From Tubulanus polymorphus (taxonomy: Eukaryota > Animalia > Nemertea), in assembly GCF_964204645.1 (NCBI RefSeq), contig NC_134036.1:10085859-10149858 (forward strand): a stretch of 64,000 nucleotides of DNA, written 5' to 3'. Positions 31,180 to 64,000 of the stretch are shown here, piece after piece (the first letter of the stretch is position 1; every line of letters begins with the position of its first letter). The notes beneath the pieces were generated by a model. It saw only the letters and a program-made list of their open reading frames with translations. It had not been told where the DNA came from and searched no databases. A program made the translations under genes and the position numbers.

Positions 31180-31185
31180 CTTATT

Positions 31186-32152: not shown

Positions 32153-32229
32153 TTATATTAGAGGAAACAAGCAAAAAAAAATATTATAAGTATTATAAAA
32201 TGATACTAGCTAGTTAAAGCTAAAGAATT

Positions 32230-32324
32230 CTAGTATTAGTTATTGTTTTTTTAGTATTTTTTATTTGTGATATAAAGTATTCTTTTTGAAAAGAAAGTAT
32301 TAAAAAAACAATAACTAATACTAG
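32230..32324. repeat. AT-rich hairpin (~33-bp arms)
   Basis: CTAGTATTAGTTATTGTTTTTTTA ... TAAAAAAACAATAACTAATACTAG. Confidence 0.85.
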
Positions 32325-32430
32325 CTTGTTGAAGATATGTAATTTTTAATATATTTTATTTGAATTCTATTTGATATCTCACTACTTTTGTTTATCTATT
32401 AGGAGCAGTAGTTATAACTGTCCAGATAAG

Positions 32431-33105
32431 TCATTTCGGATCCTTGATATCAAATTCCTCAACATATTGTTCATTATTTGGATTATTGTTCCATAATTCA
32501 ACAAATGTCTTTGCTTTATCCAGTTGATCTAAATATAATTTCATATCTAGTTTATTAGATTTAATTATGTTTTCCTTCTTTTCTAAAGGTCTTAAATTTT
32601 TCCAACCCCAAATAAGTTTTTTATTGTATTCATCATTCACGTTAAATTTAGATATTGGTAACACGTGATCAATATGGTAATAATCCCCATAATTATCTAT
32701 ATTCATTTTATCATCGAATTGAAATATAATCCATGATTTGAGAAATTCATCTATACAACCCAACAAATTAGATTGTGTTTCTGAATGTGTTTCTTTGTTG
32801 AATAATTGTGTTAATCTAGACCTTAAGCATTGTTTCAATCTAAAATTAAGATCTGTTTGATATCTTCCTCTCATATATTCTGTCATATAATAATTATAAT
32901 GTTCTATATTATCTTCTCGATATTGTTTGGTATATAGTTTAGTACAAGTTTTACAACAATATTGAAAACCATCTTTGCTAATCTTACGCTTACTAAATTC
33001 TGTTAATGATTTATCTAATTCACACTTAGAACACTTCTTGTAGTATATGTTTATAACACCAGTGTTATTTGTAATATTGATAGTTTGTGGTTGTTCTGGT
33101 TCCAT
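32431..33105 (-). CDS. HNH endonuclease of the type common in large DNA viruses
   Basis: KKCSKC...CKTC zinc module, LRSRL, MNIDNYG.YYHIDHVLP and NLRPL...EN..KSNK. Confidence 0.85.
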   Translation of the reverse strand: MEPEQPQTINITNNTGVINIYYKKCSKCELDKSLTEFSKRKISKDGFQYCCKTCTKLYTKQYREDNIEHYNYYMTEYMRGRYQTDLNFRLKQCLRSRLTQLFNKETHSETQSNLLGCIDEFLKSWIIFQFDDKMNIDNYGDYYHIDHVLPISKFNVNDEYNKKLIWGWKNLRPLEKKENIIKSNKLDMKLYLDQLDKAKTFVELWNNNPNNEQYVEEFDIKDPK

Positions 33106-33239
33106 TTATTATACGTATTTTTTTACTAAATTGGTTAATATTTTAGAATCCTCTTCCATTTTTTCAACCAACGTCATCCTTTTTTCATTCTTCGTTGCTT
33201 TTGATAAGTTGTTTCGATTCCTTGATATCTAAATCATAC

Positions 33240-33545
33240 CGCGTCACATGCGGACATACAGGAGCGTTTTTGCTTAATGCGCATGCGTTAATCATAATTA
33301 TATATTCATTCTATAAATTCTGTAAAATAGAAACAACACATGCGTTACATGTGTCACATGCGGCCATTTATGACCGGTTTTGCTTAATGCGCATGCGCTA
33401 ATCCTAATTATATATTCATTCTGTAAAATAGAAACAACTGAACATAGAAAATTCAAACGCGTTCATGTCTGCGTCACATGCGTTACATGTGTCACATGCG
33501 GCCATTTATGACCGGTTTTGCTTAATGCGCATGCGCGAATCATAA
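33240..33545. repeat. Three imperfect tandem units containing GTCACATGCGG...TTTTGCTTAATGCGCATGCG
   Basis: Motif recurs at ~33241, ~33352 and ~33490; GC-richer than the rest of element B. Confidence 0.85.
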
Positions 33546-46290: not shown

Positions 46291-48571
46291 TGGGATTTTT
46301 CTCGCCATGCTCATATTTACGTATGAATATTTATTCTTAGAACGATAGGACTTTATGCTCCTCGTGTTCAATCTAAAATTAAAACTTATTTTATAGACAC
46401 TAATTACTAGTGATATGACAGTTATATATCCTATAATTCCATCGGACTGTGTGACAATATCAATTTGTAAAATGTGTTTAGTAATATATCAAAAAGGTAC
46501 TTGACGAAGTGTGAGCGTATAGGAAACACTTTACAGGTGTTGAGACAAAACACTAGGTCACACGACGGATCCGGACTAATTGTAATTCTAAATCCGTGAT
46601 TTACGATTCAGTTTGACGCTGGAGGTCGTCCATTTCTTGGCTTTTCGGGATGTATATTCATCAATGGATGACAATGCTTCGGGTTATTCTTGTCGCTGTT
46701 TAGACCCGGTAATTACTCGGGATTAATTCATAATAAATTAATATACGCAAATTCGGAATGGTCAGACGCTGAGTTATATTTCTGTCAGAATTGAAAATTA
46801 TGTGTATAAGCTGTTGGTCGTCGAATCTGAGAGGAGTTACATTTTATGAAAAACATTTGTTTGGAAAGTGGAAAAGATAATAATCACGAGAATTACAATA
46901 CGGTTTCTGCGAAGCAGTAGAAACGCTAATAATACCAATGATTGTACGGTTAGATATTGATTGAAACTCATATCAGCATTTTGTTAAACCAAAAATCAAT
47001 ACACACCCGGCATCACTATGTACATTCACGGAGCCATAAGTACACCTGAGCCATTCGCTTTGACAGTAAATCATTATATTTAAAGAGCTGTCGCTTATCA
47101 GTGTTTCTGAATATTACTTTTTCATATGTTATTTTTGGTATTCTCCCTGATGTACTGCGCATGTTTAATATAGATCATTTTGACTAGTAACACAGCGATC
47201 TTACACCTGAGATTATCAGTGACAACGGAATCAGATAACTTTGTCGAACAATTTCCTGTGCGTATTTGCTTCGAATTCTTAGTGCAGCCCCGAGCGCCGA
47301 ATAAATTCGGTACTTGATAAATTGAAATTCAAACTCACTTGTGACGTTGTTTTAAAAGGCTGCAACGACTTATTTTCTTATGTTCCTTATTTGAAAAGAT
47401 TTTCTAATTCTTTTAGCTTTTACGAAATTATAGCTGCATTCTGATCCATGCATTCATAGCTTAAAAGAAACTTGAAATTAAATCGCGAATTTGTTTTCCA
47501 ATTTTTTTCATCAGCAAACATAGAACATGACTAAGATACAATGTAGTCTGCATATGAATAAACATGCTGCTTTTAAAGAGCTGTCGCTTTTCTCTGTTCA
47601 ACAACAATTCAATTCAACTATTCAGACCAAAAAATTAAACAGAAATAAGAAAATAAAAAAGACACTGATTGGACTATGTTTGGCTACGATTCACATGTTA
47701 TGAGGACTCTGGCCTTAAACGTTTTTGAAATAACAAATGAACAAAAAACACCAGCAATTAAACATATTATCAGTGGACTCTAAAAACGCATTGTTCACTG
47801 TTTAAATTTTGCATATGAACATATGAAAAATTACTGCAATTTCAAAAACGGCTCAAAAGATCGCATACACGAGTGATGTCGATTGCATGAAACATGTGTC
47901 CTTATAGCAAACTTTGTCAAGGATTTTTGGCACTTGATTCAAGCAAACATTTTACAAGTGCAGTTTTCCAGACCGGTTTTATCAATAAAATGGTAAGTGA
48001 GTCCTGGATATTTATTCAATCATGTTATATTCTCCGGAAAAAAATAATGGAACATTTTTCATATATTTGATTTTTCTTACTGTTGAATAAGCCGGTTATT
48101 TATTATATATAACGAGAAAGCGAGCATTTAACGGCGGGAACTGATCTTAATTTTTCCACATGTAACACGTTTTTACCGATTTCAAGTATACAACGATAGT
48201 GCTTTATATTTTAATCGGTTTATCTGACGCTCGAGCCTTCGCATCTAATGTAAAGAAGCTTCATCTGGTGTATGAGCATACCATTTATATTAACAACAAA
48301 GATCTCAAGACGGGACAGTATAGATTTCTATGTCGATAAACGGCTTTTACAGATTGCTATCACCAAATAGAATATTCTAGTGCTAGATTACAGTCCAGGA
48401 ACAAGTTCGGTTACATTTGACTCTAGAATTAATATGACTCGTTACGTTGTGTATGTGAATGTGAGCATGGAGTTCATATTTTAGTCCTGTTCACGGAATG
48501 GATTCATTTATATGAATATAAATCAGTATCATGCACAAACTATCTGAAATAGATGAAATTGTGTAGATACT

Positions 48572-48779
48572 AGTAATAGGGGTAATGGGCTTTCATACCA
48601 AAGGTCGAAAGGTCGAGCCCGAGAAATTTTCCAAAATGTTAAAATAACAACAATTTCTACTTGAATTAGTCGCGTACACTCCTAATTCAAGTAGAAATTA
48701 TTATTATTTTAACATTTTGGAAAATTTATCAACCTCAACCTTTCAACCTTTGATATGAAAGCCCATTACCCCTATTACT
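48572..48779. repeat. 208-bp imperfect palindrome at the left end of element C
   Basis: AGTAATAGGGGTAATGGGCTTTCATA ... TATGAAAGCCCATTACCCCTATTACT; ~98-bp arms with a 12-nt loop. Confidence 0.95.
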
Positions 48780-48861
48780 CTTAAAATATTCATATATATA
48801 TGAATAACATTTAAATCATTGAACTTCTAAAATCAATTTTAATAAAAAATATAGTATTAAA

Positions 48862-51800
48862 ATGGAAGCAAATAAGTACTACTGCCCAACATGTAATATC
48901 GATATAGACAAGTCTCAAAAAGCAAGACACAATAAAACTAGAACACATTTAGAGAATAAATTGAAATTAGAATATGAAGATGATATATTAGAAAATAAAT
49001 TAGAAGAATTAAAGGATGAAAAAGAAACATACAAATGTGATACATGTAATCAATCATTCAGTGATAAAAGATATTATAAAGAACATTTAAAATCTATAAG
49101 TCATATTAGAAATAAGAATAATGATATTTTAGGTGAAGATTATTTTGATAATGATAACGATAAGAAACAGAAGACAATTAAAAGAATAAAAAATAAATTA
49201 AACAATAAAAGACCATATATGGAAGATGTAAGAAATTATATTAATTCATTAGATAATAAAAAAGATATAGAGATAACCGAAGCATTTAAAAGTGATATTG
49301 GTCCAGCAGCTATCGAGTTTAAATTTCATAAAGGTAAAACATTAGAAGAAAATAAAAAACATTTAGAAAATATGAAAGAAATAATAAAAATAATTACAAA
49401 CGTAGAATATCCTAAAATAAGTATATCTTCTAAAGTAAAGTTTATAAAATCTGAAGATAAACCAATATATAATATAAATTCTCATTCACAACATATTATA
49501 TCTAAACAACATATAGATGATAAATTAGATAAATGTTATAATGAAATAAAAACTAAAATAGAAGAGAAATATTTTGAAGGATCTGGTTTAATATTTGATG
49601 AGATAATATTTATAACTTTACATGTTTATAACACAAAATATAATAAGTTAACTAAATCAAAACCAATTGATGAAAATAATTTATCATATTATAAAGATGA
49701 TAGTATAAATGGAACAAGTTATATTAAACTACCATTTAAAACTAATGGTGTAATAAATATACAAAATTTTGATAATAAATGTTTTCTATGGGCTATAATA
49801 AGTTGTTTACATCCAACAGAAGATATTACACATAGTTTTAGATTAACTCATTATAAACAATTTGAAAATAATTATAAGATAGATAAGTATCCTGTTAGAA
49901 TTAAAAATATTCCAAAAATAGAAAGAGATAATAATCTAAAAATAAATGTATTTGATTTAATCAAATTACCAAATACAAAAGGAAATAATATTAAACATTA
50001 TACATTAGAACCTTTATACCTATCAAAAGATTATGATTCAAATGATGTTATAGATATACTATATTATGAGAATCATTACATGTGGATTAAACAAATAGAT
50101 TTATTTTTCAAATCAGAAAATGATCACCATAAAATATATCTATGTAGAAAATGTTTACATAGATTCAGTAATGAAAGTACATTATTAAATCATAAACAAC
50201 TATGTGATAATCATGATTATTGTAAATTAGTTTTACCAAATGAAAAGGATAAAATATTAGAATTCAAAAAATATGATTACAAAAATAAAGTACCATTTGT
50301 AATATATGGAGATTTTGAATCATTAAATAAAGAATTAACAGATAAAGATAGAAAAGATATATATTATAAAAGAAAGAAATTAAATTCTAATGAAAGTGAT
50401 TATTCAGAAGACCCACCAAAAACAAATACAATTAAAAAGATTCATCAATCAGCTGCAGCTTTCGGGTTATATATTAAATCTAATTATCCAGAACTAATCG
50501 AAAGTGAATATTATAATTATAGAAATGAAAATGTTATCAATCATTTTTGTGACTTATTAATTGAATATGAAATAAGATTTAGTAAATTATTGAATACAAA
50601 TAAAGAAATAATTATGACAGAAGAAGATAAAGAAGAATTTGAGTTTGCAGATAAATGTTATTATTGTGAAAAGATATTTAATTATAAAGATAAAAAAGTA
50701 AGAGACCATAATCATTTGAATGGAAAGTTTAGAGGCGCTGCACATGAGAATTGTAACTTACAAGCTAAGAAAATTAACTTTGTACCAGTTATATTTCATA
50801 ATCTATCAGGATATGATGCACATTTATTCATCAAACAGTTATGTCATAAAATAGAAGAAATCAATAATGAAATAGAAATATTAAATTCAAATAGATCAAA
50901 AGATAAAATACCAACTTATAAATTTAGAATGTTAGCTAAAACATCTGAGAATTATATATCTTTCCAATTTGGATGCTTAAGATTTATAGATTCATATAGA
51001 TTTTTAAGTAGTTCATTAGATAACTTATCAAAATCATTAGTTGATGATGAATTAAAGATATTAAAAGAATATTACCCAAATAATGATGATTTTCAATTAA
51101 TGAGATATAAAGGAGCAATTCCATATTCTTTCTATAAAAATCATAATGATTTTAAAATAACTGAATTATTAAAAGAACAATTTTATGATGAATTAAAAAA
51201 TGAATATGTTAAAGATGAAGTATATAATAGAACATTGAATATTTGGAATCATTTCAAAATAGAAAATCATGGTCAATTAGTAGATTTATATTTAAAATCA
51301 GATGTATTATTATTAACCGATATATTCGAAAGGTTTAGAGATGTAAACCTAAAATATTTTAACATTGATCCTTGTCATTGTTATTCATCACCAGGATTAA
51401 CATGGGATTGTGGATTAAAATTTACAGATATAAAAATGGATTTGTTAACAAATATAGATCAATTACTATTATTTGAAAAATCTATAAGAGGAGGTGTTTC
51501 AGGTGTATTGGGTGATAGATATTTTAATGTAAATGATAATCCTGGATATGAATTATTATACATAGATGCAAATAATCTTTATGGTTGGGCAATGATGGAA
51601 CCACAACCTTATGGGATGTTTGAAATAACTGAAGTTTTACAAATTGATAAATTTGATTGGAAGAAAAGAATCCTAGATATTGCAGATGATTCAGATACTG
51701 GTTACTTCTTTGTTGTAGATTTAGAATACCCTGAAAATATAAAATTCAAATCTAGAAATCTAGCATATTGTCCCGAACATAAAACTGTTAAACATGAAGA

Positions 51801-52890
51801 ATTATCAAATTATCAAAAAAGAATTAAACCCGATAATCATATTCATACAGAAAAGTTAATGGTAACTCAAGAAGATAAATATAATTATGTAGTACATTAT
51901 AGAATGTTAAAATTCTATTTGAATCAAGGAATGATATTAAAAAAAGTACATAGATATATTTCATTTAATCAATCTAAGTGGTTAGAAAAATATATAGATT
52001 TTAATACTACACAGAGAACTGAAGCTAAAACTGATTTTGAGAAGGATTTTTTTAAGTTAATGAACAATGCGTTCTATGGAAAAACATGTGAAAACATAAG
52101 AAATAGAAGTGATATTGAGTTAGTTAGTAATGGTAAAAGGATAAGGCATTTACAATCGTATCCGAAATTCATAGGTAATAGAATATTCGATGAAAATTTA
52201 GCTGCAGTTAAGATGAGGAGAACTTCTATGAAGTTCAATAAACCAATCTATGTTGGTGCATCAGTTCTAGAAATTTCAAAATTATTAATGTATCAATTTT
52301 ACTATAACATATTACAACCCCATTTTGGAGAAAAAAATATAGAAATATTATATCTAGATACTGACAGTTATATATTAAAGATAAAAAGTGATAATATAAA
52401 TGATGATTTAAAAATATTAAATCATCATTTTGATTTCAGCAATTATCCCAAAGATCATGAACTATTTAGCAATGATAATAAAAAAGTTCCTGGGAAGTTT
52501 AAGGATGAATTAGGTGGTGAAGAAATGATAGAGTTCATAGGTATTAGATCTAAAATGTATTCATATAAAACTAAAGAACATGAAGCTAAAAAGTTAAAAG
52601 GAATTACTAAAAGTGTAGTAGAAAAGAATATTCATTTCAAAGATTACATCAATTGTATATTTAATGAAGAAGTTAGAAAACATAAGATGAAATGTTTAAG
52701 ATCTGAAGATCATGAAATGTATATTGAAGAGATAGAGAAGATAAGTCTAAACCCATTTGATGATAAAAGATATATTTTAGATGATGGAATCCACACAGTC
52801 GCCTATGGTTGCAATTTAGATGAATATATAAAATTCAAAAGAGAAGAAACAAAAGAAAATGAAATTATGAAAAGGATTCTAACGTGTTAA
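48862..52890 (+). CDS. polB: Protein-primed DNA polymerase B (1342 aa) with N-terminal zinc fingers, OTU-like domain and HNH/EndoVII-like insert
   Basis: YGDFES, FHNLSGYD, DANNLYG, KLMNNAFYGK and DTDS motifs; NKCFLWAI...HYMWI; CYYC...RDHNHLNGKFRGAAHENCN. Confidence 0.97.
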   Translation: MEANKYYCPTCNIDIDKSQKARHNKTRTHLENKLKLEYEDDILENKLEELKDEKETYKCDTCNQSFSDKRYYKEHLKSISHIRNKNNDILGEDYFDNDNDKKQKTIKRIKNKLNNKRPYMEDVRNYINSLDNKKDIEITEAFKSDIGPAAIEFKFHKGKTLEENKKHLENMKEIIKIITNVEYPKISISSKVKFIKSEDKPIYNINSHSQHIISKQHIDDKLDKCYNEIKTKIEEKYFEGSGLIFDEIIFITLHVYNTKYNKLTKSKPIDENNLSYYKDDSINGTSYIKLPFKTNGVINIQNFDNKCFLWAIISCLHPTEDITHSFRLTHYKQFENNYKIDKYPVRIKNIPKIERDNNLKINVFDLIKLPNTKGNNIKHYTLEPLYLSKDYDSNDVIDILYYENHYMWIKQIDLFFKSENDHHKIYLCRKCLHRFSNESTLLNHKQLCDNHDYCKLVLPNEKDKILEFKKYDYKNKVPFVIYGDFESLNKELTDKDRKDIYYKRKKLNSNESDYSEDPPKTNTIKKIHQSAAAFGLYIKSNYPELIESEYYNYRNENVINHFCDLLIEYEIRFSKLLNTNKEIIMTEEDKEEFEFADKCYYCEKIFNYKDKKVRDHNHLNGKFRGAAHENCNLQAKKINFVPVIFHNLSGYDAHLFIKQLCHKIEEINNEIEILNSNRSKDKIPTYKFRMLAKTSENYISFQFGCLRFIDSYRFLSSSLDNLSKSLVDDELKILKEYYPNNDDFQLMRYKGAIPYSFYKNHNDFKITELLKEQFYDELKNEYVKDEVYNRTLNIWNHFKIENHGQLVDLYLKSDVLLLTDIFERFRDVNLKYFNIDPCHCYSSPGLTWDCGLKFTDIKMDLLTNIDQLLLFEKSIRGGVSGVLGDRYFNVNDNPGYELLYIDANNLYGWAMMEPQPYGMFEITEVLQIDKFDWKKRILDIADDSDTGYFFVVDLEYPENIKFKSRNLAYCPEHKTVKHEELSNYQKRIKPDNHIHTEKLMVTQEDKYNYVVHYRMLKFYLNQGMILKKVHRYISFNQSKWLEKYIDFNTTQRTEAKTDFEKDFFKLMNNAFYGKTCENIRNRSDIELVSNGKRIRHLQSYPKFIGNRIFDENLAAVKMRRTSMKFNKPIYVGASVLEISKLLMYQFYYNILQPHFGEKNIEILYLDTDSYILKIKSDNINDDLKILNHHFDFSNYPKDHELFSNDNKKVPGKFKDELGGEEMIEFIGIRSKMYSYKTKEHEAKKLKGITKSVVEKNIHFKDYINCIFNEEVRKHKMKCLRSEDHEMYIEEIEKISLNPFDDKRYILDDGIHTVAYGCNLDEYIKFKREETKENEIMKRILTC

Positions 52891-52918
52891 TAAATTTCAA
52901 TAAAAATTTGTATAATAA

Positions 52919-53260
52919 ATGGAGAGTAAACAAGTACACAGTGAATTCTTAGATAGAATTAAAGATACCACAAATGTAAAATCTGTAGATTATAAATTCA
53001 AAAAGTTAACAGAATTAACAATTCACAAGAAATATCTAATTACTAACATTGAAACAATTACTAATAAATATGGAGATAAATTAGTTATACACTTAGAATA
53101 TGAAGGATTAAAAGGAAATACATATAAATTCAGAACTTATTTACCAGATAGATTTCATAGATTATCAAGTGAAGATCTAGAAGAATTATGTTCTGGAGAT
53201 TTCTATTTCGTATACAAAGGTAAGAATGAAAAAGGGCACCATGAAATAGATTTCGAATGA
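52919..53260 (+). CDS. Small conserved protein (113 aa)
   Basis: Conserved in element B; follows pPolB. Confidence 0.8.
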   Translation: MESKQVHSEFLDRIKDTTNVKSVDYKFKKLTELTIHKKYLITNIETITNKYGDKLVIHLEYEGLKGNTYKFRTYLPDRFHRLSSEDLEELCSGDFYFVYKGKNEKGHHEIDFE

Positions 53261-53275
53261 AAATATGTAAAATAA

Positions 53276-54034
53276 ATGGTAGAATTAAAAGAATACAGAA
53301 TATTTGTTGATTCTAGAAAACTTACAAATTATAAATCACATAATTTATTAGTACAATTAGATAGAGAATTCAAGAATTGTGTAGATTTAAAATTAGTAAA
53401 TATAAGTTTATGTAATTCTTTTTACAATATATCAAATAAAACTATTGAACATAATACTTTTTTAATTCATATTAGAAATATAAATAAATGGTTTCATCTA
53501 TTTCTAAGACCAGGATTATATAATTTAGAAACATTATCTCAAGAAATTAATCGTAGAGCACGGTTGAAAATTAGAAAAGATGATAAATTTTTAATAAGAT
53601 TTATAAAAAGTGATAGCTCAAATAGAATTAAAATAAAGGTATTTGATGAAAGTCAACATGCATTTATGGTAAAAAAACCTATAGCTAAATTGCTAGGAAT
53701 TGAACCAGATGTTGTTACAGTAAACGTAGAAGGTATTTCAAATATAATACCTTTTACACATTTTTATATTTATTGCAATTTAATTGACCCAACAAAAACA
53801 TTTGAAGCAACTAAAGATACAACATGTAATTCTAGTATATTAAATATTTTACCATTAAAAAATTTTAAAGAATTTGGAACGCAAATAAATTATAATTTAA
53901 CAGAATGTGATTTCAAACCATGCATTCCTAGTTTTAATAATTTTAGATTAGAAATTAGAAATCATAATGGATACTTAATTGATTTAAATAATTTCCCTGT
54001 AATTTATGAATTATTTATAAGATGTAAAGAGTAA
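53276..54034 (+). CDS. Probable minor capsid (penton) protein
   Basis: Penton-like N- and C-terminal motifs; central region diverged from element B. Confidence 0.75.
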   Translation: MVELKEYRIFVDSRKLTNYKSHNLLVQLDREFKNCVDLKLVNISLCNSFYNISNKTIEHNTFLIHIRNINKWFHLFLRPGLYNLETLSQEINRRARLKIRKDDKFLIRFIKSDSSNRIKIKVFDESQHAFMVKKPIAKLLGIEPDVVTVNVEGISNIIPFTHFYIYCNLIDPTKTFEATKDTTCNSSILNILPLKNFKEFGTQINYNLTECDFKPCIPSFNNFRLEIRNHNGYLIDLNNFPVIYELFIRCKE

Positions 54035-54051
54035 TTTTTTTCACTATATAA

Positions 54052-54393
54052 ATGAATATAACTGTTGGACCGAGTATATGTTTTGGGTTTGATTTTAAAC
54101 ATGGTAAAGAAATGAGAATTAAACTAAATGATGTAATTACTGATATAAAAAGTAAATCATTTAACAATGCATCAATGATTGATAAAGAAAAGTATAATAT
54201 AGAAAAAGTAATTGATTTAATTAAATCACCTTTAGAATATTATGAATTAAATGAAGATGGAATTATTGAAGATATTAAAAACATATTATCCAAAATATAT
54301 GATAATCATAAAACTAGTAATGAAATAAATGTTGAATTAATCATAAATAAGTTAACTAAATATTTTGAAGATAGTAATTTTTTTGATAAATAA
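54052..54393 (+). CDS. Hypothetical protein (113 aa)
   Basis: Homolog of 29003-29359. Confidence 0.75.
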   Translation: MNITVGPSICFGFDFKHGKEMRIKLNDVITDIKSKSFNNASMIDKEKYNIEKVIDLIKSPLEYYELNEDGIIEDIKNILSKIYDNHKTSNEINVELIINKLTKYFEDSNFFDK

Positions 54394-54615
54394 ATGAGTG
54401 ATAATAAGTGGATAATAACTGGATTATATAATGGCGCATTACTATCAGTTGGAACGGTTGGTTATTCAATGGTATTAAAAAAAGTATTCAAAATGGGAAG
54501 TGTTAATGTTGATAGATTTGATATAAATGATATTTTGAAATTAACGTTAGCAGTTACTTTATCTAATTTAACAATTGATTATTTGGAAAAACAAAAATAT
54601 ATTCCTCCCATATAA
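54394..54615 (+). CDS. Small hydrophobic protein (73 aa)
   Basis: Homolog of 28781-29002. Confidence 0.8.
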   Translation: MSDNKWIITGLYNGALLSVGTVGYSMVLKKVFKMGSVNVDRFDINDILKLTLAVTLSNLTIDYLEKQKYIPPI

Positions 54616-54639
54616 ATGCATAATTTTTTTGCTAAATAA

Positions 54640-55057
54640 ATGGCTTCTGCAATTATAACTATTATAGGATCGGCAATTGTTAACGCTTTAGCATTCACTG
54701 GTGGTGGTTATTTATTTAAACATATTGATAAAAATAGTTCATTAGGAGAACAAAGAAGACATAACGTTAGAGAAATACAATAAAGCTGCAGAAGAATATA
54801 GAGAAAAGAGACAAAACTATATGGATTACATCAATAAAGAATTATATGATCAGAAGATTTCACATAGAGATTTTCAATCAGTTGATGATGCAATGAGTTT
54901 ATATAACACAGTAACAAATAAAGAAAAATTACATCTATACAAACCCAAATTATCAGATTATTATACCCCAAGTAAAGAACAACAGAAATATGAAATAATA
55001 TGGATTTTAGGTGGAACTGTTATTGTTATATTTGTTGCTTATAAGTTTACTAATTAA
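54640..55057 (+). pseudogene. Membrane protein, frameshifted near 54765
   Basis: MASAIITIIGS start at 54640; small deletion relative to the intact B copy (28334-28756). Confidence 0.8.
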
Positions 55058-55082
55058 TTATTTATTATTTTTTGTTAAATAA

Positions 55083-55517
55083 ATGGAAGATAAAGTTGAT
55101 AATATTGATATTATTCCTCATGATATAAATAAAACTAAATTAAAAACATATTTAGAAAAACAAATATTAGAATTTGAAAGTGACTTAAAGATAAAAAAGA
55201 AAAAATATTTAAAAAGTAAAATTATATATTATTTGATTATAAGTGGTTCGGTTACAATTAGTTCTGTAATAACATTTCTAGCAATATTCAGCCCATTAAC
55301 ACCTTTAGCTATATCAATTGGTGTATTAGGATTAAGTTCAAGTGTTTTAACCGGTATAAGTTCAAAATTAAATATAAAAAGTAATAAAGAAAAAATCAAA
55401 ACTAATATAAAAGAAATTAATAAATTAAAGAATACACTAGATTATATAATAAGTTTAAATGGTCATAAAACAGTTGAAGAACAAGATAAATTATTAAAAG
55501 AATTAATAAATTATTAA
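55083..55517 (+). CDS. Two-TM membrane protein (144 aa)
   Basis: Homolog of 27880-28314. Confidence 0.8.
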   Translation: MEDKVDNIDIIPHDINKTKLKTYLEKQILEFESDLKIKKKKYLKSKIIYYLIISGSVTISSVITFLAIFSPLTPLAISIGVLGLSSSVLTGISSKLNIKSNKEKIKTNIKEINKLKNTLDYIISLNGHKTVEEQDKLLKELINY

Positions 55518-55533
55518 TTTTTTAATTATATAA

Positions 55534-56922
55534 ATGGTAGATAGTTTTCCAAAAGCTTTCCGATATAATAAATCAATTAAATATAATATTCCAGCAATAG
55601 ATTTTAATAAAGATATTACATATAGAAATGAAGTTTTAGATTCATTAACTAATTTAGAAATTTATGTTACTGAAACTAATAATTTTAATGCAAAGATGGA
55701 AAATATATTTCATGTATATTTAATTAATTTTAAAAAATTGAAAGATGAAAAACAATGGTTATTAAAATCTAATATGAAGTATTGGCAGAATCAATTAAAT
55801 TTTGCTGTTTATTGTGCAACAACAGGATGTGGAATTAGTTGGAATGATCATTTGAATAATTCTAAATATAAATTAATTCAAAGTTTATTTAGATTTCATA
55901 CATACTTTCAAATCAGAATAATATTAAATGAATTAGAGTGCGCTTTACCAGGATCTAGATATTTTAAAGAATTAGATAATAATATTAATTTATCTAAGTT
56001 TTATAAGATTTGCAATGAATTTAATATAGATATAAATAATTCTGATTTTAGAACAAAAATTGGAACAATAAGATCACTTCCTTGCCCTAAAAAGATTGCA
56101 GAATATTGTGCACTTCCCATACCATCTAATAGTTTTTATAATATCTATAATAAAAAATTAGGTTATGGTAAAATAGAAACAAATGATTTAGAAACATTAA
56201 ATTTCAATAAAACACCGAAATTTTATGATAATTTAAAACAAGAAAACAATAATGGTTGGGTTTATTTTATTTTAGAAAATAGTGAAGGTTTTACAAAATC
56301 AGGTATAGAAAGAATAAATCAATCTATTAGAACTTATTTGATTTGTATTCTAGGATCACAAGTTGAAACAAGATCACCGATAATTGGAAATTTGAATACA
56401 TCATTTGATACACAAAAACAATTTAAAGTTTTATTTGAAGATTCCATACATAATGATAAAAATAGATCGATTCCAGAAAACATTATAAGATATCAAAATT
56501 ATTTAGATAAATCTCATGTAAGACTAAATTATTGTATAGGCCCTAATCTATTAATTATTTCTAATGATTTAGTATTAAAGATGGGAAACATAATTGGTTA
56601 TAATAATCTAATTAAAACTGCAACAATAAATAATTCATTTGGATTGAATGATATAAATAAAAAGATTATTACTGCTCCAAAATTAATGGAAGGTGAAAAA
56701 AATAAAAAACATATTCAATCAACTGAAACTAAAACTAAAAATATTAAATTGGATAATGATTCTAAAATAAAAGATTACAGTACATCAGAAAATAATAGAA
56801 CTGATAAAATTCAACATGATATAATTAAACTAAATGATGATAATAAATCCCATGAAAATACTAAATTAGCTATAACTTGTATAGGAATTGTAATCGGAGG
56901 AATATTATATTTTAAATTTTAA
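55534..56922 (+). CDS. 462-aa protein with C-terminal membrane anchor
   Basis: Intact ORF; LAITCIGIVIGGILYFKF tail; conserved in element B. Confidence 0.85.
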   Translation: MVDSFPKAFRYNKSIKYNIPAIDFNKDITYRNEVLDSLTNLEIYVTETNNFNAKMENIFHVYLINFKKLKDEKQWLLKSNMKYWQNQLNFAVYCATTGCGISWNDHLNNSKYKLIQSLFRFHTYFQIRIILNELECALPGSRYFKELDNNINLSKFYKICNEFNIDINNSDFRTKIGTIRSLPCPKKIAEYCALPIPSNSFYNIYNKKLGYGKIETNDLETLNFNKTPKFYDNLKQENNNGWVYFILENSEGFTKSGIERINQSIRTYLICILGSQVETRSPIIGNLNTSFDTQKQFKVLFEDSIHNDKNRSIPENIIRYQNYLDKSHVRLNYCIGPNLLIISNDLVLKMGNIIGYNNLIKTATINNSFGLNDINKKIITAPKLMEGEKNKKHIQSTETKTKNIKLDNDSKIKDYSTSENNRTDKIQHDIIKLNDDNKSHENTKLAITCIGIVIGGILYFKF

Positions 56923-56938
56923 TTTTTTTATTATGTAA

Positions 56939-58500
56939 ATGGATGTAGAAGGTGGAGAAGATTATGAAATGGGAGAAATGGGAAATAATAATGAAGGATA
57001 TATTGATGATGAACCACAACCAGATTTTAATGAAACTAATATTGATAATGATGATGAATCAGCATATAATTCTAATTTAGCAGATAGTGGTTCTAAAGTC
57101 CCATCAACAGATGAATTTGATAGAAGAACTAGATCGAGAATAAATCCTGAAAATGAAAATCAAGGTTTATAAAGACAAAATTTAGAAAATATTGAATATA
57201 TTTATAAGTTTCAAGATGTATTTAAAAAATCTGGATATAATATAAATTACAGAGGCGCCAGACTTTTAGTAAAAGATTTAAAATATTTAGATGGTGAATA
57301 TTATTATAAATTGAAAGATGATTATTATATTAACATCTCTTATAAAACTCAAAATATAATATTAGCAGAATCAACTTTGCTTAAGTTAGAACCAGATAGA
57401 ATTAAGAGAATAAGTAATAGAAATGAAATAACTGATGTTACACAAGAAGAAAGAGATAATAATAGAAAAGAATTTAAACAAAGAATTAATGAATTATTTG
57501 AAATAATCGATAATAATCCAGAAACGGAAATGGAAGAGAATAGAGATAAATTAAGATCTTCAACACCCGAAACATCGAGAAGAGACACTCAACAAATTGA
57601 TAATGATTCAAGTCAATTACAATTAGTATTAGAAAAACAAATTGATAGATTAAGAGATTCATTTGACGAAGAGATGAATAGTGCTGGAATAAATCGAATA
57701 CAATCTTTACTAGAAAAAGGATTACTTGATTTATCAGCTGATGAATTAGAATCATTTCCTGAACAAGCACGTACAGAAATTAAAGGTATGCAAGAATCAG
57801 CTGATAAAATTGCACATGATAAAAGTAAAAGAGATATTAAAATTAGATTTTTAGAAAAAGATAGAACTGATAAAAATAAAGAAATAGAACAATTAAAATT
57901 AGATAGAGATAATAAAGTTATTGAAGAAATTGAATTTAAAAAAAGAAATGCATATTTAGAAAAAGAAATTGATGATTTAGAATATAACATAGAATTACAA
58001 AAAGAAGAAATTAAATTATTGTTAAAATCATATGATTATAATATAAATAGATTAAAAGTTATTTTTAAAGATTTGTTGATTAAACCAAATTCTGAAATAT
58101 CATTAAAAGATAGAATAAAGTTATTATTTAAATTAGAAGGAATAACAATTCTTTCAATTCTAACAGCTGTAACTATGTTATTTACAACAATAGGTTTAGC
58201 TATATCAAATGCTTTAAAATCTACTCCTACTCCCAATAAACCAGATAAACCTCCAGGTAATAATTCTATACAAGATAAAGTTAAAGATGGTTTGAGAAAT
58301 TAGCAAAATATTTATGGGAACTATCTAAAAAATCTGCTGCAGCTTTACCAGGAATTATTGCATCAATTGTTGGTTTCATATTGAAATCTGCAGGAAACAT
58401 TATTAACTTTGCTGCTGAACATATTATTTTATTTTTAATCACAGTTGTAAGTGCTATTATTTTTGGTTTAGTAAATATGATATCAAAAAATATCAAGTAA
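56939..58500 (+). pseudogene. Acidic/coiled-coil protein with C-terminal hydrophobic helices; stop at 57170 and frameshift near 58295
   Basis: ORFs 56939 and 57311 share a frame; the tail LPGIIASIVGFILKSAG...IILFLITVVSAIIFGLV lies in a shifted frame. Confidence 0.75.
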
Positions 58501-58554
58501 ACCATGATATCAAAAAATATCAAAAAATAAATAATTAATTTTTTTGTTAAATAA

Positions 58555-59802
58555 ATGAGTGGGAGTTATATCAGTCCTTCTAAGATTTCTAGAATATCTA
58601 ATGCTATTAAAGCAGAAAGATCACATCATATAATTACTCATAACCCTTCAAATATTAATCCCGATGAAACTTTATATGTTAGAATTCCGAGATTAACACA
58701 AAATACTTTTTATGTTCCAAATAGTATTTATTTATCAGCTGATATAAAAGTAATCGGTAATAATAATAATTATGTTGTTGATAATGTTGGAAGATATTTG
58801 AGTAAAAAGTTAACAATAAAGATTGGTCCGGAAACAGTTTTCTCATTAGATGATTATAATTTATTTTCACATTATAAAGATTTATGGTTAACTAAAGAAA
58901 ACAGAAATAATATGATATTTCAAGGCATCCAATCAGAAAACCAAAATAAATTAAGATCAGAAGCTAATAGCGCAATATTAACAAATGATGTAGATAAATT
59001 GATAAAAAGTATATATGGAAACAAATATAAAATTCCATTAGACTTTGAATTGATAAATAATAATGCACCTTTATATAAATACGCAATTCAAGAAGATGTT
59101 ATATTTGAGATAACATTTGCTCCTGTAAATGAAATTGTAATATCTAGTGTTAATAAAGATATGAGTTATAAATTATCGAATATATGTTTAGAATATGATA
59201 CAGTAACTGATGAAAATATTGCTAGAACAATTCAAACTCAATACAACCAAGGGTTTTCATTATTATATGATTATATTGATAAATTTAAAACTGTAACTAT
59301 TAATGCAAATGATGAAATAATAAATGAGAATATTAACTTCCCAAGAAGATCTATTAAAGGTATATTAATATTTTTTACTATTGGAACATATACTAATGGC
59401 GCAATAAATGTTGACAATTATTATAATCCTGAAATAACAAAAGTAGAAATAACTATCGAAGGTATAGCGAATAAAATATTTTGTCAAGGAATGAGAATGA
59501 TAGATCAATGGGTAGAAATTAAAAAACATTTTATGAATGAAAAAGTAAAATCATTTGAAAATTGTAACATTAATCAAATTGATTATTATACTGGTAATAA
59601 ATATGCATTATGGTTAGATTTTAGAACAACTGAAGATAACTTATTACATGGTTCTGGAAAAAAACTACAAAACACTAAAGATGGAATACAATTATTCATG
59701 ACAAAGAAAAAGGGAATCAAAAATTTTAAAATGCATATTTATATTATATCTGACGCGCAATTAAATATTGTAAATTCACAATTAGATAGTGTTATGTATT
59801 AA
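58555..59802 (+). CDS. Probable double jelly-roll major capsid protein (415 aa)
   Basis: Size, beta-rich pattern (ITHNPSNINPDETLYVRIPRL...LEYD...NINFPRRSIKGILIFF...LWLDFR), high B/C conservation and genomic context. Confidence 0.75.
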   Translation: MSGSYISPSKISRISNAIKAERSHHIITHNPSNINPDETLYVRIPRLTQNTFYVPNSIYLSADIKVIGNNNNYVVDNVGRYLSKKLTIKIGPETVFSLDDYNLFSHYKDLWLTKENRNNMIFQGIQSENQNKLRSEANSAILTNDVDKLIKSIYGNKYKIPLDFELINNNAPLYKYAIQEDVIFEITFAPVNEIVISSVNKDMSYKLSNICLEYDTVTDENIARTIQTQYNQGFSLLYDYIDKFKTVTINANDEIINENINFPRRSIKGILIFFTIGTYTNGAINVDNYYNPEITKVEITIEGIANKIFCQGMRMIDQWVEIKKHFMNEKVKSFENCNINQIDYYTGNKYALWLDFRTTEDNLLHGSGKKLQNTKDGIQLFMTKKKGIKNFKMHIYIISDAQLNIVNSQLDSVMY

Positions 59803-59834
59803 AATTTTAACTTTAATAAAAATATATATAATAA

Positions 59835-60866
59835 ATGGAAGGTGGAATATATGAAATACAAACTCCAAGTGAAATGATATCAGATATATATTATATATTA
59901 CCTTATGATGAATACAGTAAGTATTTTGGAGATTACTTTAATCAATTCAAATATAGAATAAGTAAAATAGATAAGAATATTGATATAAAAATAGAAGATA
60001 ATATTGAAACAAAAATAGAAGATAAGAATGATATTGAATATAAAATAGAAGATAATGTTATACCTTCTACATCGAATGATGATAAGATTGAAACAAAAAT
60101 AGAATATAATATTGAACCTAAAATAGAAAAATCAAATGTTCAACCAAAAGATAACATCAGATGTATGTATTGTGAAGAAGATTTTGATAATTATAATGAT
60201 TATTTATTACACATCAAAAAAGATGAACATATTTTACAATTAGTAAAAACATATGCCAATATGTATAAAAATAAATGCAAAGAGGATCAGAATTATTGTG
60301 CTTTCTGTAATGAATGTATAACAAAGGCTAATTGGGCAAAACATTATAAATTAAAAACAAAAAGTGGAAATGATTCAGCCCATGCAATACAAGTATTTAA
60401 ATCTTGGTGTGAAAAATGTAAAGAATATGTAATATATGATAAACAATTGAATCATAAATACTCAATTAAACATATTGGTACAGATAATGTAATAGAAGAT
60501 CCAACAGTTATAAATCCAAAATTTAATAATAATAATATATTAGATTATCGGTGGTATAGAAAAACATTTATAGATTATTTATTGAGTAATGATATAGTTA
60601 CCATATTGAAAAAGTTAGATAACTTTAAACCAAATGTAAGTTATGCAATGAACTTATTTGAACTTAAATATGATGATTTTAGAGAATTTTTAAATAAACA
60701 TCCATCTAAAACTGAAATCGAAAATTATATTCCAAAAATATTTTCAAGAAAAACATTCAATAAATATAAATTTGGGAATCATTTAGGACTTATATCAAAG
60801 ATAATGCAAAGGGATATATATTTAGAATACAATAAGCTTAAAGAAAAATATGAAAATGAAAATTAA
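59835..60866 (+). CDS. Variable-slot multi-zinc-finger protein (343 aa)
   Basis: CMYC...H...H, CAFC...H and CEKC...H...H fingers; KIED repeats. Confidence 0.75.
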   Translation: MEGGIYEIQTPSEMISDIYYILPYDEYSKYFGDYFNQFKYRISKIDKNIDIKIEDNIETKIEDKNDIEYKIEDNVIPSTSNDDKIETKIEYNIEPKIEKSNVQPKDNIRCMYCEEDFDNYNDYLLHIKKDEHILQLVKTYANMYKNKCKEDQNYCAFCNECITKANWAKHYKLKTKSGNDSAHAIQVFKSWCEKCKEYVIYDKQLNHKYSIKHIGTDNVIEDPTVINPKFNNNNILDYRWYRKTFIDYLLSNDIVTILKKLDNFKPNVSYAMNLFELKYDDFREFLNKHPSKTEIENYIPKIFSRKTFNKYKFGNHLGLISKIMQRDIYLEYNKLKEKYENEN

Positions 60867-60870
60867 AAAG

Positions 60871-61250
60871 ATTATAGAATTCACTGTATATTGATGGATG
60901 AATGGATGAGTTGGAAGAGTTGGATGAGTTGGATGAGTGGAAGAGTGGATGAGTATAATAATATATATATATTTTACTTTTTAACACATAAATTGGAAGA
61001 ATAGTATGAGTATAAATATAATATTTATATTCTTTATTAAATTTAACACAATATATATATATTATTAAAATAATATTTAAATATAGTATAAAATTGATAA
61101 AATAACTTCAAATCAAACTCTTACTGTTTTAAAAATAAAAAACATATGTAAATTATATATTATTACACTCATCCATTCATCCACTCATCCAATTCATCCA
61201 ATTCATCCAATTCATCCACTCATCCATTAGTATACAGTGAATTCTATAAT
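60871..61250. repeat. Inverted repeat (~95-bp arms of GGATGA(A/G)T units) between convergent gene blocks
   Basis: ATTATAGAATTCACTGTATA...(TGGATGAG)n versus (CTCATCCA)n...TATACAGTGAATTCTATAAT. Confidence 0.92.
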
Positions 61251-61266
61251 ATTTTGAATTAGGATT

Positions 61267-61878
61267 TTATTTTATAAATTTATATTCATAAGGAAATTGT
61301 AATCTCATAAGTAATTTGGAACCTTTATTATTTTTTAATTTATTCATATATTCATCATGTAATTCAGTAGGTATAATTTGATTTTCTTCCAATGATTGTT
61401 GCATAGATTTTCTATCTTTGTTATAAAATAAAACTAGAAATCTTATATTCTCTCTAAAATCTTTAACAATTGAATTATATTTTTGATTTAAAACCCATGT
61501 TGTTATCCCAAAATGTCTACCAGAGAAAGCTAAATAACATAACTCACTTTCTCTAATTTTAGAATCATGTAAATTTGCGCAATCATCGATAATAAATAAT
61601 GTATTAGATCCTTTATAAATATCTAATGCAATTTTTATACAATTATCTAAATTTTCTTTTACTGTTTTAGGGTCTAATATAATAAACTTTTTTATCTTAA
61701 CTATATCTCTATTATATGTTTTATTCATTTCATATGTAGGACAGAATAATATTATATTATCAAAATGATTTTTATAAATAGTTTCTAACAAATCTAATAT
61801 GAAATGTGTTTTACCACAATTTGTAACTCCAGTAACTAACATATTATGTGGTTCAAATATAAATAAATCTTTATTCAT
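61267..61878 (-). CDS. A32/FtsK-like packaging ATPase
   Basis: GVTNCGKT, FIIDD and GRHFGI motifs. Confidence 0.93.
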   Translation of the reverse strand: MNKDLFIFEPHNMLVTGVTNCGKTHFILDLLETIYKNHFDNIILFCPTYEMNKTYNRDIVKIKKFIILDPKTVKENLDNCIKIALDIYKGSNTLFIIDDCANLHDSKIRESELCYLAFSGRHFGITTWVLNQKYNSIVKDFRENIRFLVLFYNKDRKSMQQSLEENQIIPTELHDEYMNKLKNNKGSKLLMRLQFPYEYKFIK

Positions 61879-62956
61879 TTATTCTTTTAATTTTACTAGA
61901 TAAAATCCATTCATTAAATTTATCATCATATCCTTTATATTTCACCAAAGAATACTTTTTTCCTTTAAGAGTTTTTGTTTTCAATACCTTTTCTATTTTG
62001 TATTCTATTTCATCTGGATTTGGTACTAATGATAATTCTTGTTCATAAAAATAACCTAATATTTCTTCATCTTTTAAATCAAACAATTTATAAACAAATG
62101 GTTTAGTTAATATTATCTTTTTAATTTTAAATATTTCTTCAGTAAAATTAGGGGTATAACCTTTATAAAATGTTTTTCGATATTTAGAAATTCTAACATG
62201 TTGTCCTATTTTAAATTTAGGTTCTCCAAAATCATGTGTAACAAACGCGCCATATAAATTATTCCAAACTATTTCTGAATTTTCTTCTTTTCTAGCTTGT
62301 ATAGGTTTCATATTTATAGAACTATGGTTAGAATTATTATAACCTTTCACTAAATCATTTAACACATCGATATATTTATATGTTTCATTAGCGGTGAAAT
62401 ATTTCCACATTCTAGTTTTCAATGTTTTATTAAATCTTTCTATAACAGATGCTTTTATATCTGAATGTGTTGAAAAATATTCTACATCGTTATCAGTTAA
62501 TAGTTTTTTAAAATGTTTGTTATAAAATTCTTTACCTTCATCAAATTGTATTTTATCTGGGATAGCTTCTTTAAATATTAATTTGAAAGAATTTGTAACT
62601 TCTATACCAGTTTTATTTTTGATTGGAATTGACCATGCGTATCTACTGAATATATCTATAACATTTAGTATCCAAAAATATCCTTTGTTATATTCTTCTA
62701 AGTTTTTCATATCAATTAAATCAGCTTGCCACTGTTGGTCAATATATGAAACCATTACTTTTCTTGTTAAATATTTTTTATCCATCTTTTTATGAATTTG
62801 ATATGTTGGTTGATTTTGTAACCATGATTTTAATTCACTATATTTTATATTGCTATTATCAGATTTAATTTTATTCCATAATTCTGAAACGTTAGAATAT
62901 GATACTTCACTTTCTGGGTTGTAATATAAATCTCTCAAATATTGTTCTTTTTTCAT
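61871..62956 (-). CDS. int: rve integrase with chromodomain
   Basis: QWQADLIDM, QFDEGKEF and IERFNKTLK (DDE triad intact); C-terminal chromodomain. Confidence 0.95.
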   Translation of the reverse strand: MKKEQYLRDLYYNPESEVSYSNVSELWNKIKSDNSNIKYSELKSWLQNQPTYQIHKKMDKKYLTRKVMVSYIDQQWQADLIDMKNLEEYNKGYFWILNVIDIFSRYAWSIPIKNKTGIEVTNSFKLIFKEAIPDKIQFDEGKEFYNKHFKKLLTDNDVEYFSTHSDIKASVIERFNKTLKTRMWKYFTANETYKYIDVLNDLVKGYNNSNHSSINMKPIQARKEENSEIVWNNLYGAFVTHDFGEPKFKIGQHVRISKYRKTFYKGYTPNFTEEIFKIKKIILTKPFVYKLFDLKDEEILGYFYEQELSLVPNPDEIEYKIEKVLKTKTLKGKKYSLVKYKGYDDKFNEWILSSKIKRINE

Positions 62957-62962
62957 CTTATT

Positions 62963-63358
62963 TTAATCCATTAATAATAATCTTGGTTTATTTTCAATGA
63001 CTTTATCATTTGACTTATTTTCTGGTATGATAGGTTTATTGTCATTGGAATCATCTTTATCATCAGATTTGAATTTTGATTTATATATTACACCAGATAA
63101 TATAATAACTGTTACTAATCCAATTGTAATATATAATTTATAATTACTTCCAGCATTAGAAGAATTAGATGGATTATTATTTGAATCAATACCACCGTGT
63201 GGGTGCCGTACGGCACCATCAGATAATTTCTGTGATTCATTTATATCAGTTAATTTCTTTTTCTTAGCTTTTTTTAATTCTGATGATCTTTTACCTAATT
63301 CTCTTGCCCATTTAATTTGTTTCTCGGATCTAGGCTTTTTCTTAACGCTATCACTCAT
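62963..63358 (-). CDS. Basic single-TM protein (131 aa) with a 9-aa insertion
   Basis: Homolog of 31186-31557 plus GAVRHPHGG. Confidence 0.8.
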   Translation of the reverse strand: MSDSVKKKPRSEKQIKWARELGKRSSELKKAKKKKLTDINESQKLSDGAVRHPHGGIDSNNNPSNSSNAGSNYKLYITIGLVTVIILSGVIYKSKFKSDDKDDSNDNKPIIPENKSNDKVIENKPRLLLMD

Positions 63359-63953
63359 TTATTTTAGTTAATTTTTGTTCTGATTCATTTTCTGTTTCAC
63401 TGTTTGGTTGTAGTACATCTGTTTCGTTCTTACCTGATTTATATTCCATAGGTTTGATGTTCGAAAATGTTATGACACCAGTAGAAATTAATGTCATAAC
63501 CGATCCTAATTGAAATGAAGCATAACCGACCCATTTTTGTAATTCAGTCATAACTAAATAGTCATTTTTCAAATCATTATATAATTTATTTTCATCATCA
63601 ATTGGTATTAACTGGTTACATAATTTTGAATAACATTTGACAATACCATTCGAAATAGAATCATTTATTTTAGATAATCTTGCCTCTTCATAAATCTTAA
63701 AATATTTTATTACTTTTTCTTTATTCATATTATCTAATTCTTGAAAAGTTATTGTTTTACCAATAAACTCTTTAGTTTTTCCACTCGCAATCAATAGTTC
63801 TAGATGATGCTTACAATATAAATAGTATTCATAATCTATATTGTTATTAACTTGAATAGAATTAGAAACAACTGTATCCTTATTATCACTAATACCTAAA
63901 TCATCTAATGTTTTTTCAATATCAATACTATTCTTATTAGATTTCTTTGACAT
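63351..63953 (-). CDS. Hypothetical protein (200 aa)
   Basis: Homolog of 31550-32152. Confidence 0.8.
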   Translation of the reverse strand: MSKKSNKNSIDIEKTLDDLGISDNKDTVVSNSIQVNNNIDYEYYLYCKHHLELLIASGKTKEFIGKTITFQELDNMNKEKVIKYFKIYEEARLSKINDSISNGIVKCYSKLCNQLIPIDDENKLYNDLKNDYLVMTELQKWVGYASFQLGSVMTLISTGVITFSNIKPMEYKSGKNETDVLQPNSETENESEQKLTKINE

Positions 63954-64000
63954 TTATATTAGAGAAATTTAATAAGAATAGTATTATAAGTATTATAAAA

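Follow-up and report, generated by a model that had tools for sequence, protein, structure and literature searches.

The window, by which we mean the whole stretch of 64,000 nucleotides that was analyzed, alternates between DNA of 34–43% GC and two islands of 21–28% GC, at ~18–34 kb and ~48–64 kb. Comparing the window with itself identifies the islands as two copies of one AT-rich (23% GC), Maverick/Polinton-like element, which we call B and A and which are ~90% identical. The stretch 18754–22475 of B corresponds to 50349–54056 of A (90.6% identity) and 29484–32200 of B to 61267–64000 of A (92.4% identity), while 23811–29379 of B matches 59845–54032 of A in reverse (85–90.5% identity). The two elements are otherwise collinear, so that a single internal gene block of 5.6 kb (B 23811–29379, A 54032–59845) is inverted between them; one edge of this inversion is the location of the 296-aa gene of B discussed below. 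The positions of the genes and sites are collected in Table 1.

Element A holds an uninterrupted, polymerase-like ORF of 1342 aa, an A32-like ATPase (61267–61878) and an integrase. Two of the features that mark Mavericks and Polintons are clear in the carrier elements, namely the rve integrase core (PF00665, E 8.5e-9, above the cut-off) and an FtsK/A32-like packaging ATPase (PF04665 Pox_A32, E 1.3e-11). The Chromo match at the end of the integrase reaches 22.9 bits in A, just under the cut-off, and is above the cut-off in a third element, C. The 1342-aa ORF does not match DNA_pol_B_2 at E 0.01, and its homologous fragment in B scores 20.1 bits, which is below the cut-off. The ORF contains ...NNAFYGK... 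and ...YLDTDS..., which we take to be polymerase B motifs, and it also has a weak Endonuclease VII-like Pfam match (E 1.7e-4, below the Pfam cut-off). No Pfam match to a double jelly-roll capsid protein or an adenain-like protease was obtained in A or B; a single-sequence fold of a 462-aa ORF, made as a check for a capsid fold, had a pLDDT of 32, too low to use. About 75 nt upstream of the polymerase ORF of A lies a long, near-perfect inverted repeat with arms of ~100 nt (48568–48785), possibly a foldback insertion or else a terminal structure of the hairpin type. At the right boundary of B (33230–33550) there is a tandem array of GC-richer sequence with units of ~110–140 nt, each of which contains GCGCATGCGC, either perfectly (as at 33389 and 33527) or as a near copy. 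One ORF of B, of 224 aa (32431–33105, minus strand), is presumably HNH-nuclease-like, judging by its Cys-rich pairs and its H-x-D-H...N...N pattern; it has no Pfam match at E 0.01.

The third Maverick-like element, C (1–16500), is GC-richer (~39%). It has clear DNA_pol_B_2 matches, an integrase with rve and chromo domains, TBP, PC4 and a weak adenain-like match, and its polymerase is split over two adjoining ORFs (999–2735 and 2736–4829). The observed/expected ratio of CpG is 1.58 in C versus 0.43 and 0.60 in the A/B family. Element C is flanked by inverted copies of one sequence (1–907 and 16523–18738, 97% and 89% identical); an ORF bearing a reverse transcriptase (RT) lies inside one flanking copy (16987–18495), and the truncated left end of B abuts a flanking copy. 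There are no long ORFs at 33.6–48.8 kb and no tRNA or Rfam matches within the window. Given the elements A, B and C and the repeats, the window is eukaryote-type repetitive DNA that holds Maverick/Polinton-like elements.

Table 1. Elements, genes and sites of the 27-nt insert in the window
Feature	Position	Strand	Description
Element A	48862–64000		AT-rich, Maverick/Polinton-like; runs off the window, right end outside
Element B	18754–33100		5'-truncated; polymerase ORF in pieces; 23811–29379 inverted relative to A
Integrase of A (carrier gene 3)	61871–62956	-	rve core, chromodomain-like C-terminus
Integrase of B	30088–31179	-	Homolog of the integrase of A
Carrier gene 1 (A)	62963–63358	-	131-aa ORF, small membrane protein
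Carrier gene 1 homolog (B)	31186–31557	-	Site 1 empty, between 31417 and 31418
Carrier gene 2 (B)	22931–23821	-	296-aa ORF, C2H2-like motif
TBP of element C	8800–9372
PC4-like gene of element C	14724–15251
Palindrome	63202–63217		Perfect, 16 nt, GGTGCCGTACGGCACC; as a single strand 6-bp stem and 4-nt loop
Site 1, filled in A	63193–63219		In frame, adds GAVRHPHGG; block equally drawable at 63192–63218
Site 2, filled in B	23182–23208		CACCATGTGGGTGCCGTATGGCACCAT, 25/27 identical, in frame, GAIRHPHG
Site 3, empty in A	62851–62854		Integrase codons ~34–36, SDNSN-IKY; 27-mer here in other copies
Site 3 in B	31068–31073		Remnant of 6 nt (CACCAT), adding codons for G and D
Site 4, empty in B	32377–32378		Intergenic, between 224-aa ORF (stop 32431) and 200-aa ORF (start 32152)
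Possible site 5	63349–63350		Junction of 200-aa and 131-aa genes; reads join the 27-mer end to 63350

A small gene of element A carries a 27-nt block, CACCGTGTGGGTGCCGTACGGCACCAT (the 27-mer), which a preliminary description of this DNA had singled out as containing a perfect 16-bp palindrome and as standing out, by its GC content, from very AT-rich surroundings. Both points hold. The palindrome is internal to the block, with 9 bases before it and 2 after, and the 27-mer is the only 27-nt window of element A with at least 60% GC (70%, versus a mean of 22.7% and a standard deviation of 8.3%). The difference between the two elements is equally distinctive: among the 30 indels that separate A from B, nine are at least 9 nt long, and of these just the 27-mer has more than 40% GC. 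To assess how rare the motif is, we searched the window with the 16-mer, allowing up to three mismatches. It matches only the A place and a second place in B, which gives four strand-matches where 0.05 are expected, and none of 100 shuffles reached four. The same description had reported this second place, in a different gene of B, as a 25/27 match in the same orientation and frame that reads GAIRHPHG, and we find exactly this.

For this block we found no target-site duplication, filled and empty sites differing by exactly 27 nt; no terminal inverted repeats, the 9-nt arm being on one side alone; and no transposase linked to the 27-mer, nor an autonomous transposon in the window. The predicted hairpin has a free energy of -6.0 to -7.5 kcal/mol, which at z -0.9 to -3.0 relative to shuffles is modest rather than exceptional, and for the B copy a drawing with two alternative small hairpins that have GGTG in common is possible as well. 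The block contains no stop codon in any of the six frames, and its length corresponds to nine codons. At all four sites described below the unit boundaries, CACC...CACCAT, can be drawn alike to within one base, and the left flank ends in ATA(T/C). The orientation is the same at four of four sites (a chance of 1 in 8) and the frame is the same at the three coding sites, which all read GA(V/I)RHPHG (at site 3 by read joints); the shared orientation and coding frame are not significant on their own. We also considered whether the 27-mer derives from the ends of the elements, and rejected this, as the alignments score below shuffled controls: shuffles aligned locally as well in 998 of 1000 cases for the right-end array of B and in 1000 of 1000 for the left inverted repeat of A.

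To look at other copies of the element family, reads and contigs of the same organism were aligned to two stretches of the window. They comprise a raw Illumina run of a second study, of which ~12% was sampled (X5), and Logan contigs of three further runs (X1–X3); the counts of split alignments are rough and are undercounts. The family is highly repeated, with a depth of ~700–980 near the integrase and its neighbours versus ~85–110 at carrier gene 2 of B.

At site 1, aligning the 131-aa gene of A with its homolog in B leaves one clean 27-nt gap in DNA that is 93% identical. The clean, in-frame insertion of GAVRHPHGG relative to B that had been described earlier therefore stands, but the empty site is at 31417/31418 and not at ~31411. 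The encoded protein has a basic N-terminus, an N/S-rich linker in which the insert lies, and then one hydrophobic helix; it belongs to no Pfam family, and none of 21 candidate homologs scored. Empty forms of site 1 are found in the reads as well, where six empty-type joints together account for 94 split reads of X5 (depth 206 at 63223). Most of these empty forms also lack nine neighbouring bases, and 45 reads lack both the 27-mer and the 9 nt. The 9 nt alone are absent at 63223 in 19 of 206 reads, which probably still span the 27-mer. Taking the reads together with A and B, all four combinations of the two indels, which are four bases apart, seem to exist, and this would point to repeated gain or loss or else to very short conversion tracts. 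Behind 63415, in the 200-aa gene, six GC-rich bases are added in frame in two variants (106/738 and 44/738 X5 reads).

The copy at site 2 differs from that of A at two positions, both of them CpG-to-TpG/CpA transitions. Such decay is general in the family: transition differences between A and B affect 78 of 330 CpG positions versus 452 of 5155 other C/G positions. The B copy therefore looks like an older, once perfect palindrome in which both CpGs have decayed. The carrier gene is a diverged positional counterpart of A 59835–60866, with 25% identity over 150 aa (E 2e-4). The reads include variants of this site: 15 reads have 12 other bases in place of 23162–23206, and from another 10 the 72 nt that lie between 10-nt direct repeats are missing. 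A variant of the gene without the 27-mer still carries the right flank. The 27-mer itself is covered to a depth of 178 (at 23194), roughly double the 85 (at 23161) and 90 (at 23250) on either side of it, and we therefore attribute the excess to a pile-up from other loci.

The third site is in the integrase gene, where three states coexist: empty (A), a 6-nt remnant (B and reads) and filled (other copies). In the reads, the left joint leads from 62850 to 63193, the first base of the 27-mer (11 X5 reads), and the right joint leads from 63219, its last base, through four bases to 62855 (15 X5 reads and an X3 contig). Independent support comes from contigs that run from the 27-mer via TTTCATTAT into the sequence of A 62860–62874. 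At the same place A reads TATAT-TGCT-ATTATC and B reads TATAT-CACCAT-TTTC-ATTATC; loss of the 21 nt between the two CACC repeats of the 27-mer would leave exactly the remnant CACCAT. A form with 6 nt put in was seen in 27 and in 21 of ~340–400 reads. The corresponding protein states are SDNSN-IKY in A, SDNENGDIKY in B and, by the joints, SDNENGAVRHPHGDIKY in filled copies. X5 reads also diverge abruptly from A in this region, ~160–170 of them at each of 62703, 62737, 62909 and 62950; a sizeable subfamily therefore has a different sequence in the N-terminal region of the integrase, and the family is mosaic.

The identity of sites 2 and 3 extends beyond the 27-mer, to five bases on its left (TATAT) and nine on its right (TTTCATTAT), and the empty site 3 of A has TGCT where the filled and remnant copies have TTTC. 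Because of these common flanks, the two sites are not two independent, precise insertions. The pattern fits a patch that went from a site-2-like donor into the integrase gene via A/T microhomology and does not fit a transposase with fixed ends. Judged from the flanks, at least one event of spread looks like a short ectopic conversion patch.

Filled copies of site 4 have the 27-mer joined directly to a flank that corresponds to B 32378–32407 in 27 of 30 bases (expected 0.00), where B itself reads ...GATAT^CTCAC.... The support is one-sided and consists of 43 X5 reads and one X3 contig. A fifth site at 63349/63350 is possible: the joint from 63220 to 63350 occurs in 14 X5 reads and one X1 contig, one-sided and reaching over no more than 28 letters on the side of the 27-mer.

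The polarity of these differences can be read from more distant elements. At site 3 the integrase of element C (39% identical) and those of L025 and L028 (85–86%) are gap-free as in A. L025 and L028, the closest relatives in the metagenomes, also have site 1 without the 27-mer. Because these outgroups show the unfilled state, the 27-mer insertions, at least two of them, are derived.

In all, no fewer than four sites of one element family show the 27-mer as present, absent or reduced to a 6-base remnant, and it appears in four contexts in one orientation, with boundaries that differ by one base at most. The preliminary description had offered a tiny mobile palindrome as one of its readings, and had named as evidence against it the existence of only two occurrences explicable by a single ectopic conversion event. 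The integrase and intergenic sites in the reads and contigs bring the number of sites beyond two; between sites 2 and 3, spread does look like a short conversion. A tabulation of filled and empty sites, which had also been suggested, shows both forms coexisting at sites 1 and 2 and the frame kept at the three coding sites. As there are more than two sites, with coexisting filled, empty and remnant states and derived insertions, a mobile palindrome is favoured. The reading we prefer, to which we give a probability of roughly 60%, is that the 27-mer is a tiny, non-autonomous mobile palindrome that reaches new A/T-rich sites when it is copied in the course of templated break repair or of short-patch ectopic conversion, and not by means of a transposase. 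That the 27-mer itself moves, and by which mechanism, is what we infer from these patterns.

Under this reading, templated break repair or short-patch ectopic conversion would operate among the many copies of the element. The palindrome might itself promote the copying, for instance if its hairpin or cruciform attracted breaks or stalled replication. Its survival within genes would be eased by its exactly nine stop-free codons and by its landing in low-complexity or loop regions. In B, slippage between the CACC repeats on either side of the hairpin, or a deletion between them, could have left the six bases of the remnant. All sites of the 27-mer are in one family and mostly in the two stretches to which reads were aligned, so that the ascertainment is biased.

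A bolder version of this reading, which we put forward tentatively, would make the 27-mer a self-propagating hairpin of 27 nucleotides, smaller than any mobile element so far seen in a eukaryotic virus-like element, which invades the genes of its own host family in frame and spreads by break-induced copying that is perhaps triggered by an element-encoded nuclease, with sister families in relatives. Such a nuclease might be encoded by the HNH-like ORF of 224 aa or by the Endonuclease VII-like stretch within the polymerase ORF, and other GC-rich in-frame stretches in relatives would be the sister families.

Among the alternatives, a relocatable cis-acting signal survives best, although we regard it as unlikely. 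The 27-mer would then be a protein-binding or structural site, used in packaging or replication or by a structure-specific nuclease, of which each element keeps one and whose position drifts under selection. This accords with the copy numbers in the window, as the part of A within it has exactly one copy and B has one full and one destroyed copy. Terminal palindromes are described, in the account of bioRxiv 10.64898/2026.07.28.741278, for endogenous virophages and polinton-like viruses, and the Endonuclease VII-like match in the polymerase-like ORF of A, weak and below the cut-off at E 1.7e-4, also speaks for such a signal. However, the motif is absent from L025–L028, whose integrases are 83–86% identical, and from the metagenome scan; it is therefore not a conserved requirement of such elements. 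Its positions, moreover, are mostly within ORFs (site 4 is intergenic) and away from the element ends, it is unrelated to the terminal arrays in the window, and the rough depths suggest that some copies of the element are without it.

Movement by cut-and-paste strikes us as rather improbable. Here the 27-mer would be a MITE-like element mobilized by a nuclease or transposase encoded elsewhere, and CACCAT in B would be an excision footprint. That B itself combines the remnant at site 3 with a full copy at site 2 agrees with this, as do the discrete boundaries, which coincide to within one base at all sites, and the account of yeast GC42 includes footprints (PMC4478555). The remnant, however, is explained equally by slippage between the CACC repeats, and target-site duplications, terminal inverted repeats and a linked transposase are all lacking. 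The flanking bases common to sites 2 and 3 also speak against it, since cut-and-paste does not move flanks.

The insert might instead have been selected as a peptide module, GA(V/I)RHPHG(G), gained by several proteins, for example for metal binding by its histidines. We reject this explanation as very improbable. It would account for the single reading frame at the three coding sites, and in relatives G-A-H-A-H is likewise encoded, by another GC-rich stretch; but site 4 is intergenic, the carriers are unrelated proteins with the insert in low-complexity linkers, and sites 2 and 3 are not independent. The nucleotide identity of 25/27, with CpG transitions as the only differences, is also far above what a constraint on the peptide would maintain. 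Finally, chance similarity is refuted by the expectation of 0.05 matches and the 0/100 shuffles, and an assembly or sequencing artefact by the motif's presence in contigs from three runs and in a second study's raw reads.

Mobile palindromes that are short and rich in GC are known to occur in the organelles of yeast, other fungi and sponges and in bacteria (Rickettsia palindromic elements, or RPEs, and REPs). The double-hairpin elements of Allomyces mtDNA, which Paquin et al. reportedly described in 2000, are likewise said to be very short mobile hairpin repeats, and organellar. For Mavericks, Polintons and polinton-like viruses, we found no report of a dispersed, in-frame palindromic mini-insert in the literature searched, as judged by title and abstract.

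The GC clusters of yeast mtDNA offer a close parallel, and for them too a spread by copying during DNA repair is proposed. As presented by Wu and Hao 2015 (PMC4478555), these clusters, such as GC42, resemble the 27-mer in being short, GC-rich, hairpin-forming palindromes that encode nothing and are dispersed in very AT-rich DNA, with presence/absence polymorphism at homologous positions and occasional footprints. The same account leaves their mechanism open, with cut-and-paste alone insufficient. The differences are nonetheless plain (PMC4478555): GC42 has 42 nt and no sequence similarity to the 27 nt studied here; the clusters are in fungal mtDNA, whereas the 27-mer is in a virus-like element in nuclear-type repetitive DNA; they have an AG target duplication, which the 27-mer lacks; and GC42 is mostly intergenic while the 27-mer is coding at three of four sites. 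RPEs, according to PMC10969869, share with the 27-mer the in-frame insertion into unrelated genes, the addition of a conserved peptide and the maintenance of an open ORF, but they are bacterial, are ~100–150 bp long and fall into ten families, whereas the 27-mer is 27 nt long, sits in a eukaryotic virus-like element and forms one sequence family. The repetitive hairpin-forming elements of sponge mtDNA (PMC2800124) are very short mobile hairpin repeats like the 27-mer, but organellar.

MITEs, including those of Pandoravirus (PMC4495683), are also non-autonomous short repeats that colonize a viral genome; in contrast to the 27-mer, for which we saw none of these, they are described there as having terminal inverted repeats, target-site duplications and a known parent transposon. 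The palindromes of endogenous virophages and polinton-like viruses occur in the same broad class of integrated viruses, but as reported in bioRxiv 10.64898/2026.07.28.741278 they are 52 nt long and terminal, next to the TIRs, with a proposed role in replication priming, whereas the 27-mer is internal, dispersed and polymorphic. The 27-mer thus works like the yeast GC clusters or the RPEs, yet it is a member of neither family, nor of the MITEs.

If the preferred reading is true, such genomic parasites can arise in AT-rich nuclear or viral DNA too, and they would make the proteins encoded by endogenous viruses, the integrase included, vary slightly in length. The hundreds of paralogous target copies in one genome would then be a natural system for studying movement. 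The 27-mer is also a practical marker of recombination among copies of the element.

We extended the search to other collections. A scan with a 22-mer gave 0 matches in the metagenome collection and 0 in the prokaryote genome collection. Matches to the 16-mer in viral contigs (24 loci) all lie in phage-like DNA of 44–72% GC, and we rejected them as chance; the best of these contigs agrees with the 27-mer at 22 of 27 positions, of which 16 are forced by the 16-mer query. Integrase relatives sought in the viral contigs yielded seven pattern matches, none of them confirmed. In the databases, 1899 integrases matched at E <= 1e-10, the best with 83–85% identity.

Similar inserts may exist in relatives of the element, and we claim no wider family for them. 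In 36 integrase relatives the extra residues cluster in a few loops, among them the loop of site 3. Of the 179 residues in inserts 49 are Gly, Ala, Arg or Pro (GARP residues), versus 1841 of 12918 in the core, a comparison that is confounded by loops being Gly/Pro-rich anyway. For the nucleotide level we used a metagenome DNA set of 80 related loci (316,438 bases), from which 59 clean coding sequences, together with those of A, B and C, made a test set of 62. Five lineage-specific integrase inserts qualified, and all five are GC-richer than their own gene (Wilcoxon p = 0.06). Strong GC spikes are few, with only seven in related loci of at most 32% GC. The core GTGCC-loop-GGCAC occurs once in the 316,438 bases, in a 30-nt in-frame insert of 63% GC in L032; as a member of the same hairpin family this locus was rejected as not significant, since 41 of 200 shuffles gave at least one match.

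In L025 and L028, the variable N-terminus of the 200-aa gene holds an in-frame stretch of 25 nt and 68% GC with the palindrome GCGCATGCGC, which a MAFFT alignment does not resolve into a single clean block. This 10-nt palindrome is at position 294 in L025 and 3009 in L028; the rest of the 80 related loci do not have it. The homolog of the same gene in L026 (128–330) has an insert of 25 aa in the variable N-terminal region, and this insert includes a direct repeat of 18 nt whose sequence is moderately GC-rich. In L066, a related locus of 27% GC, two tandem, hairpin-like copies of 32 nt with 67–69% GC lie at 1531–1615.
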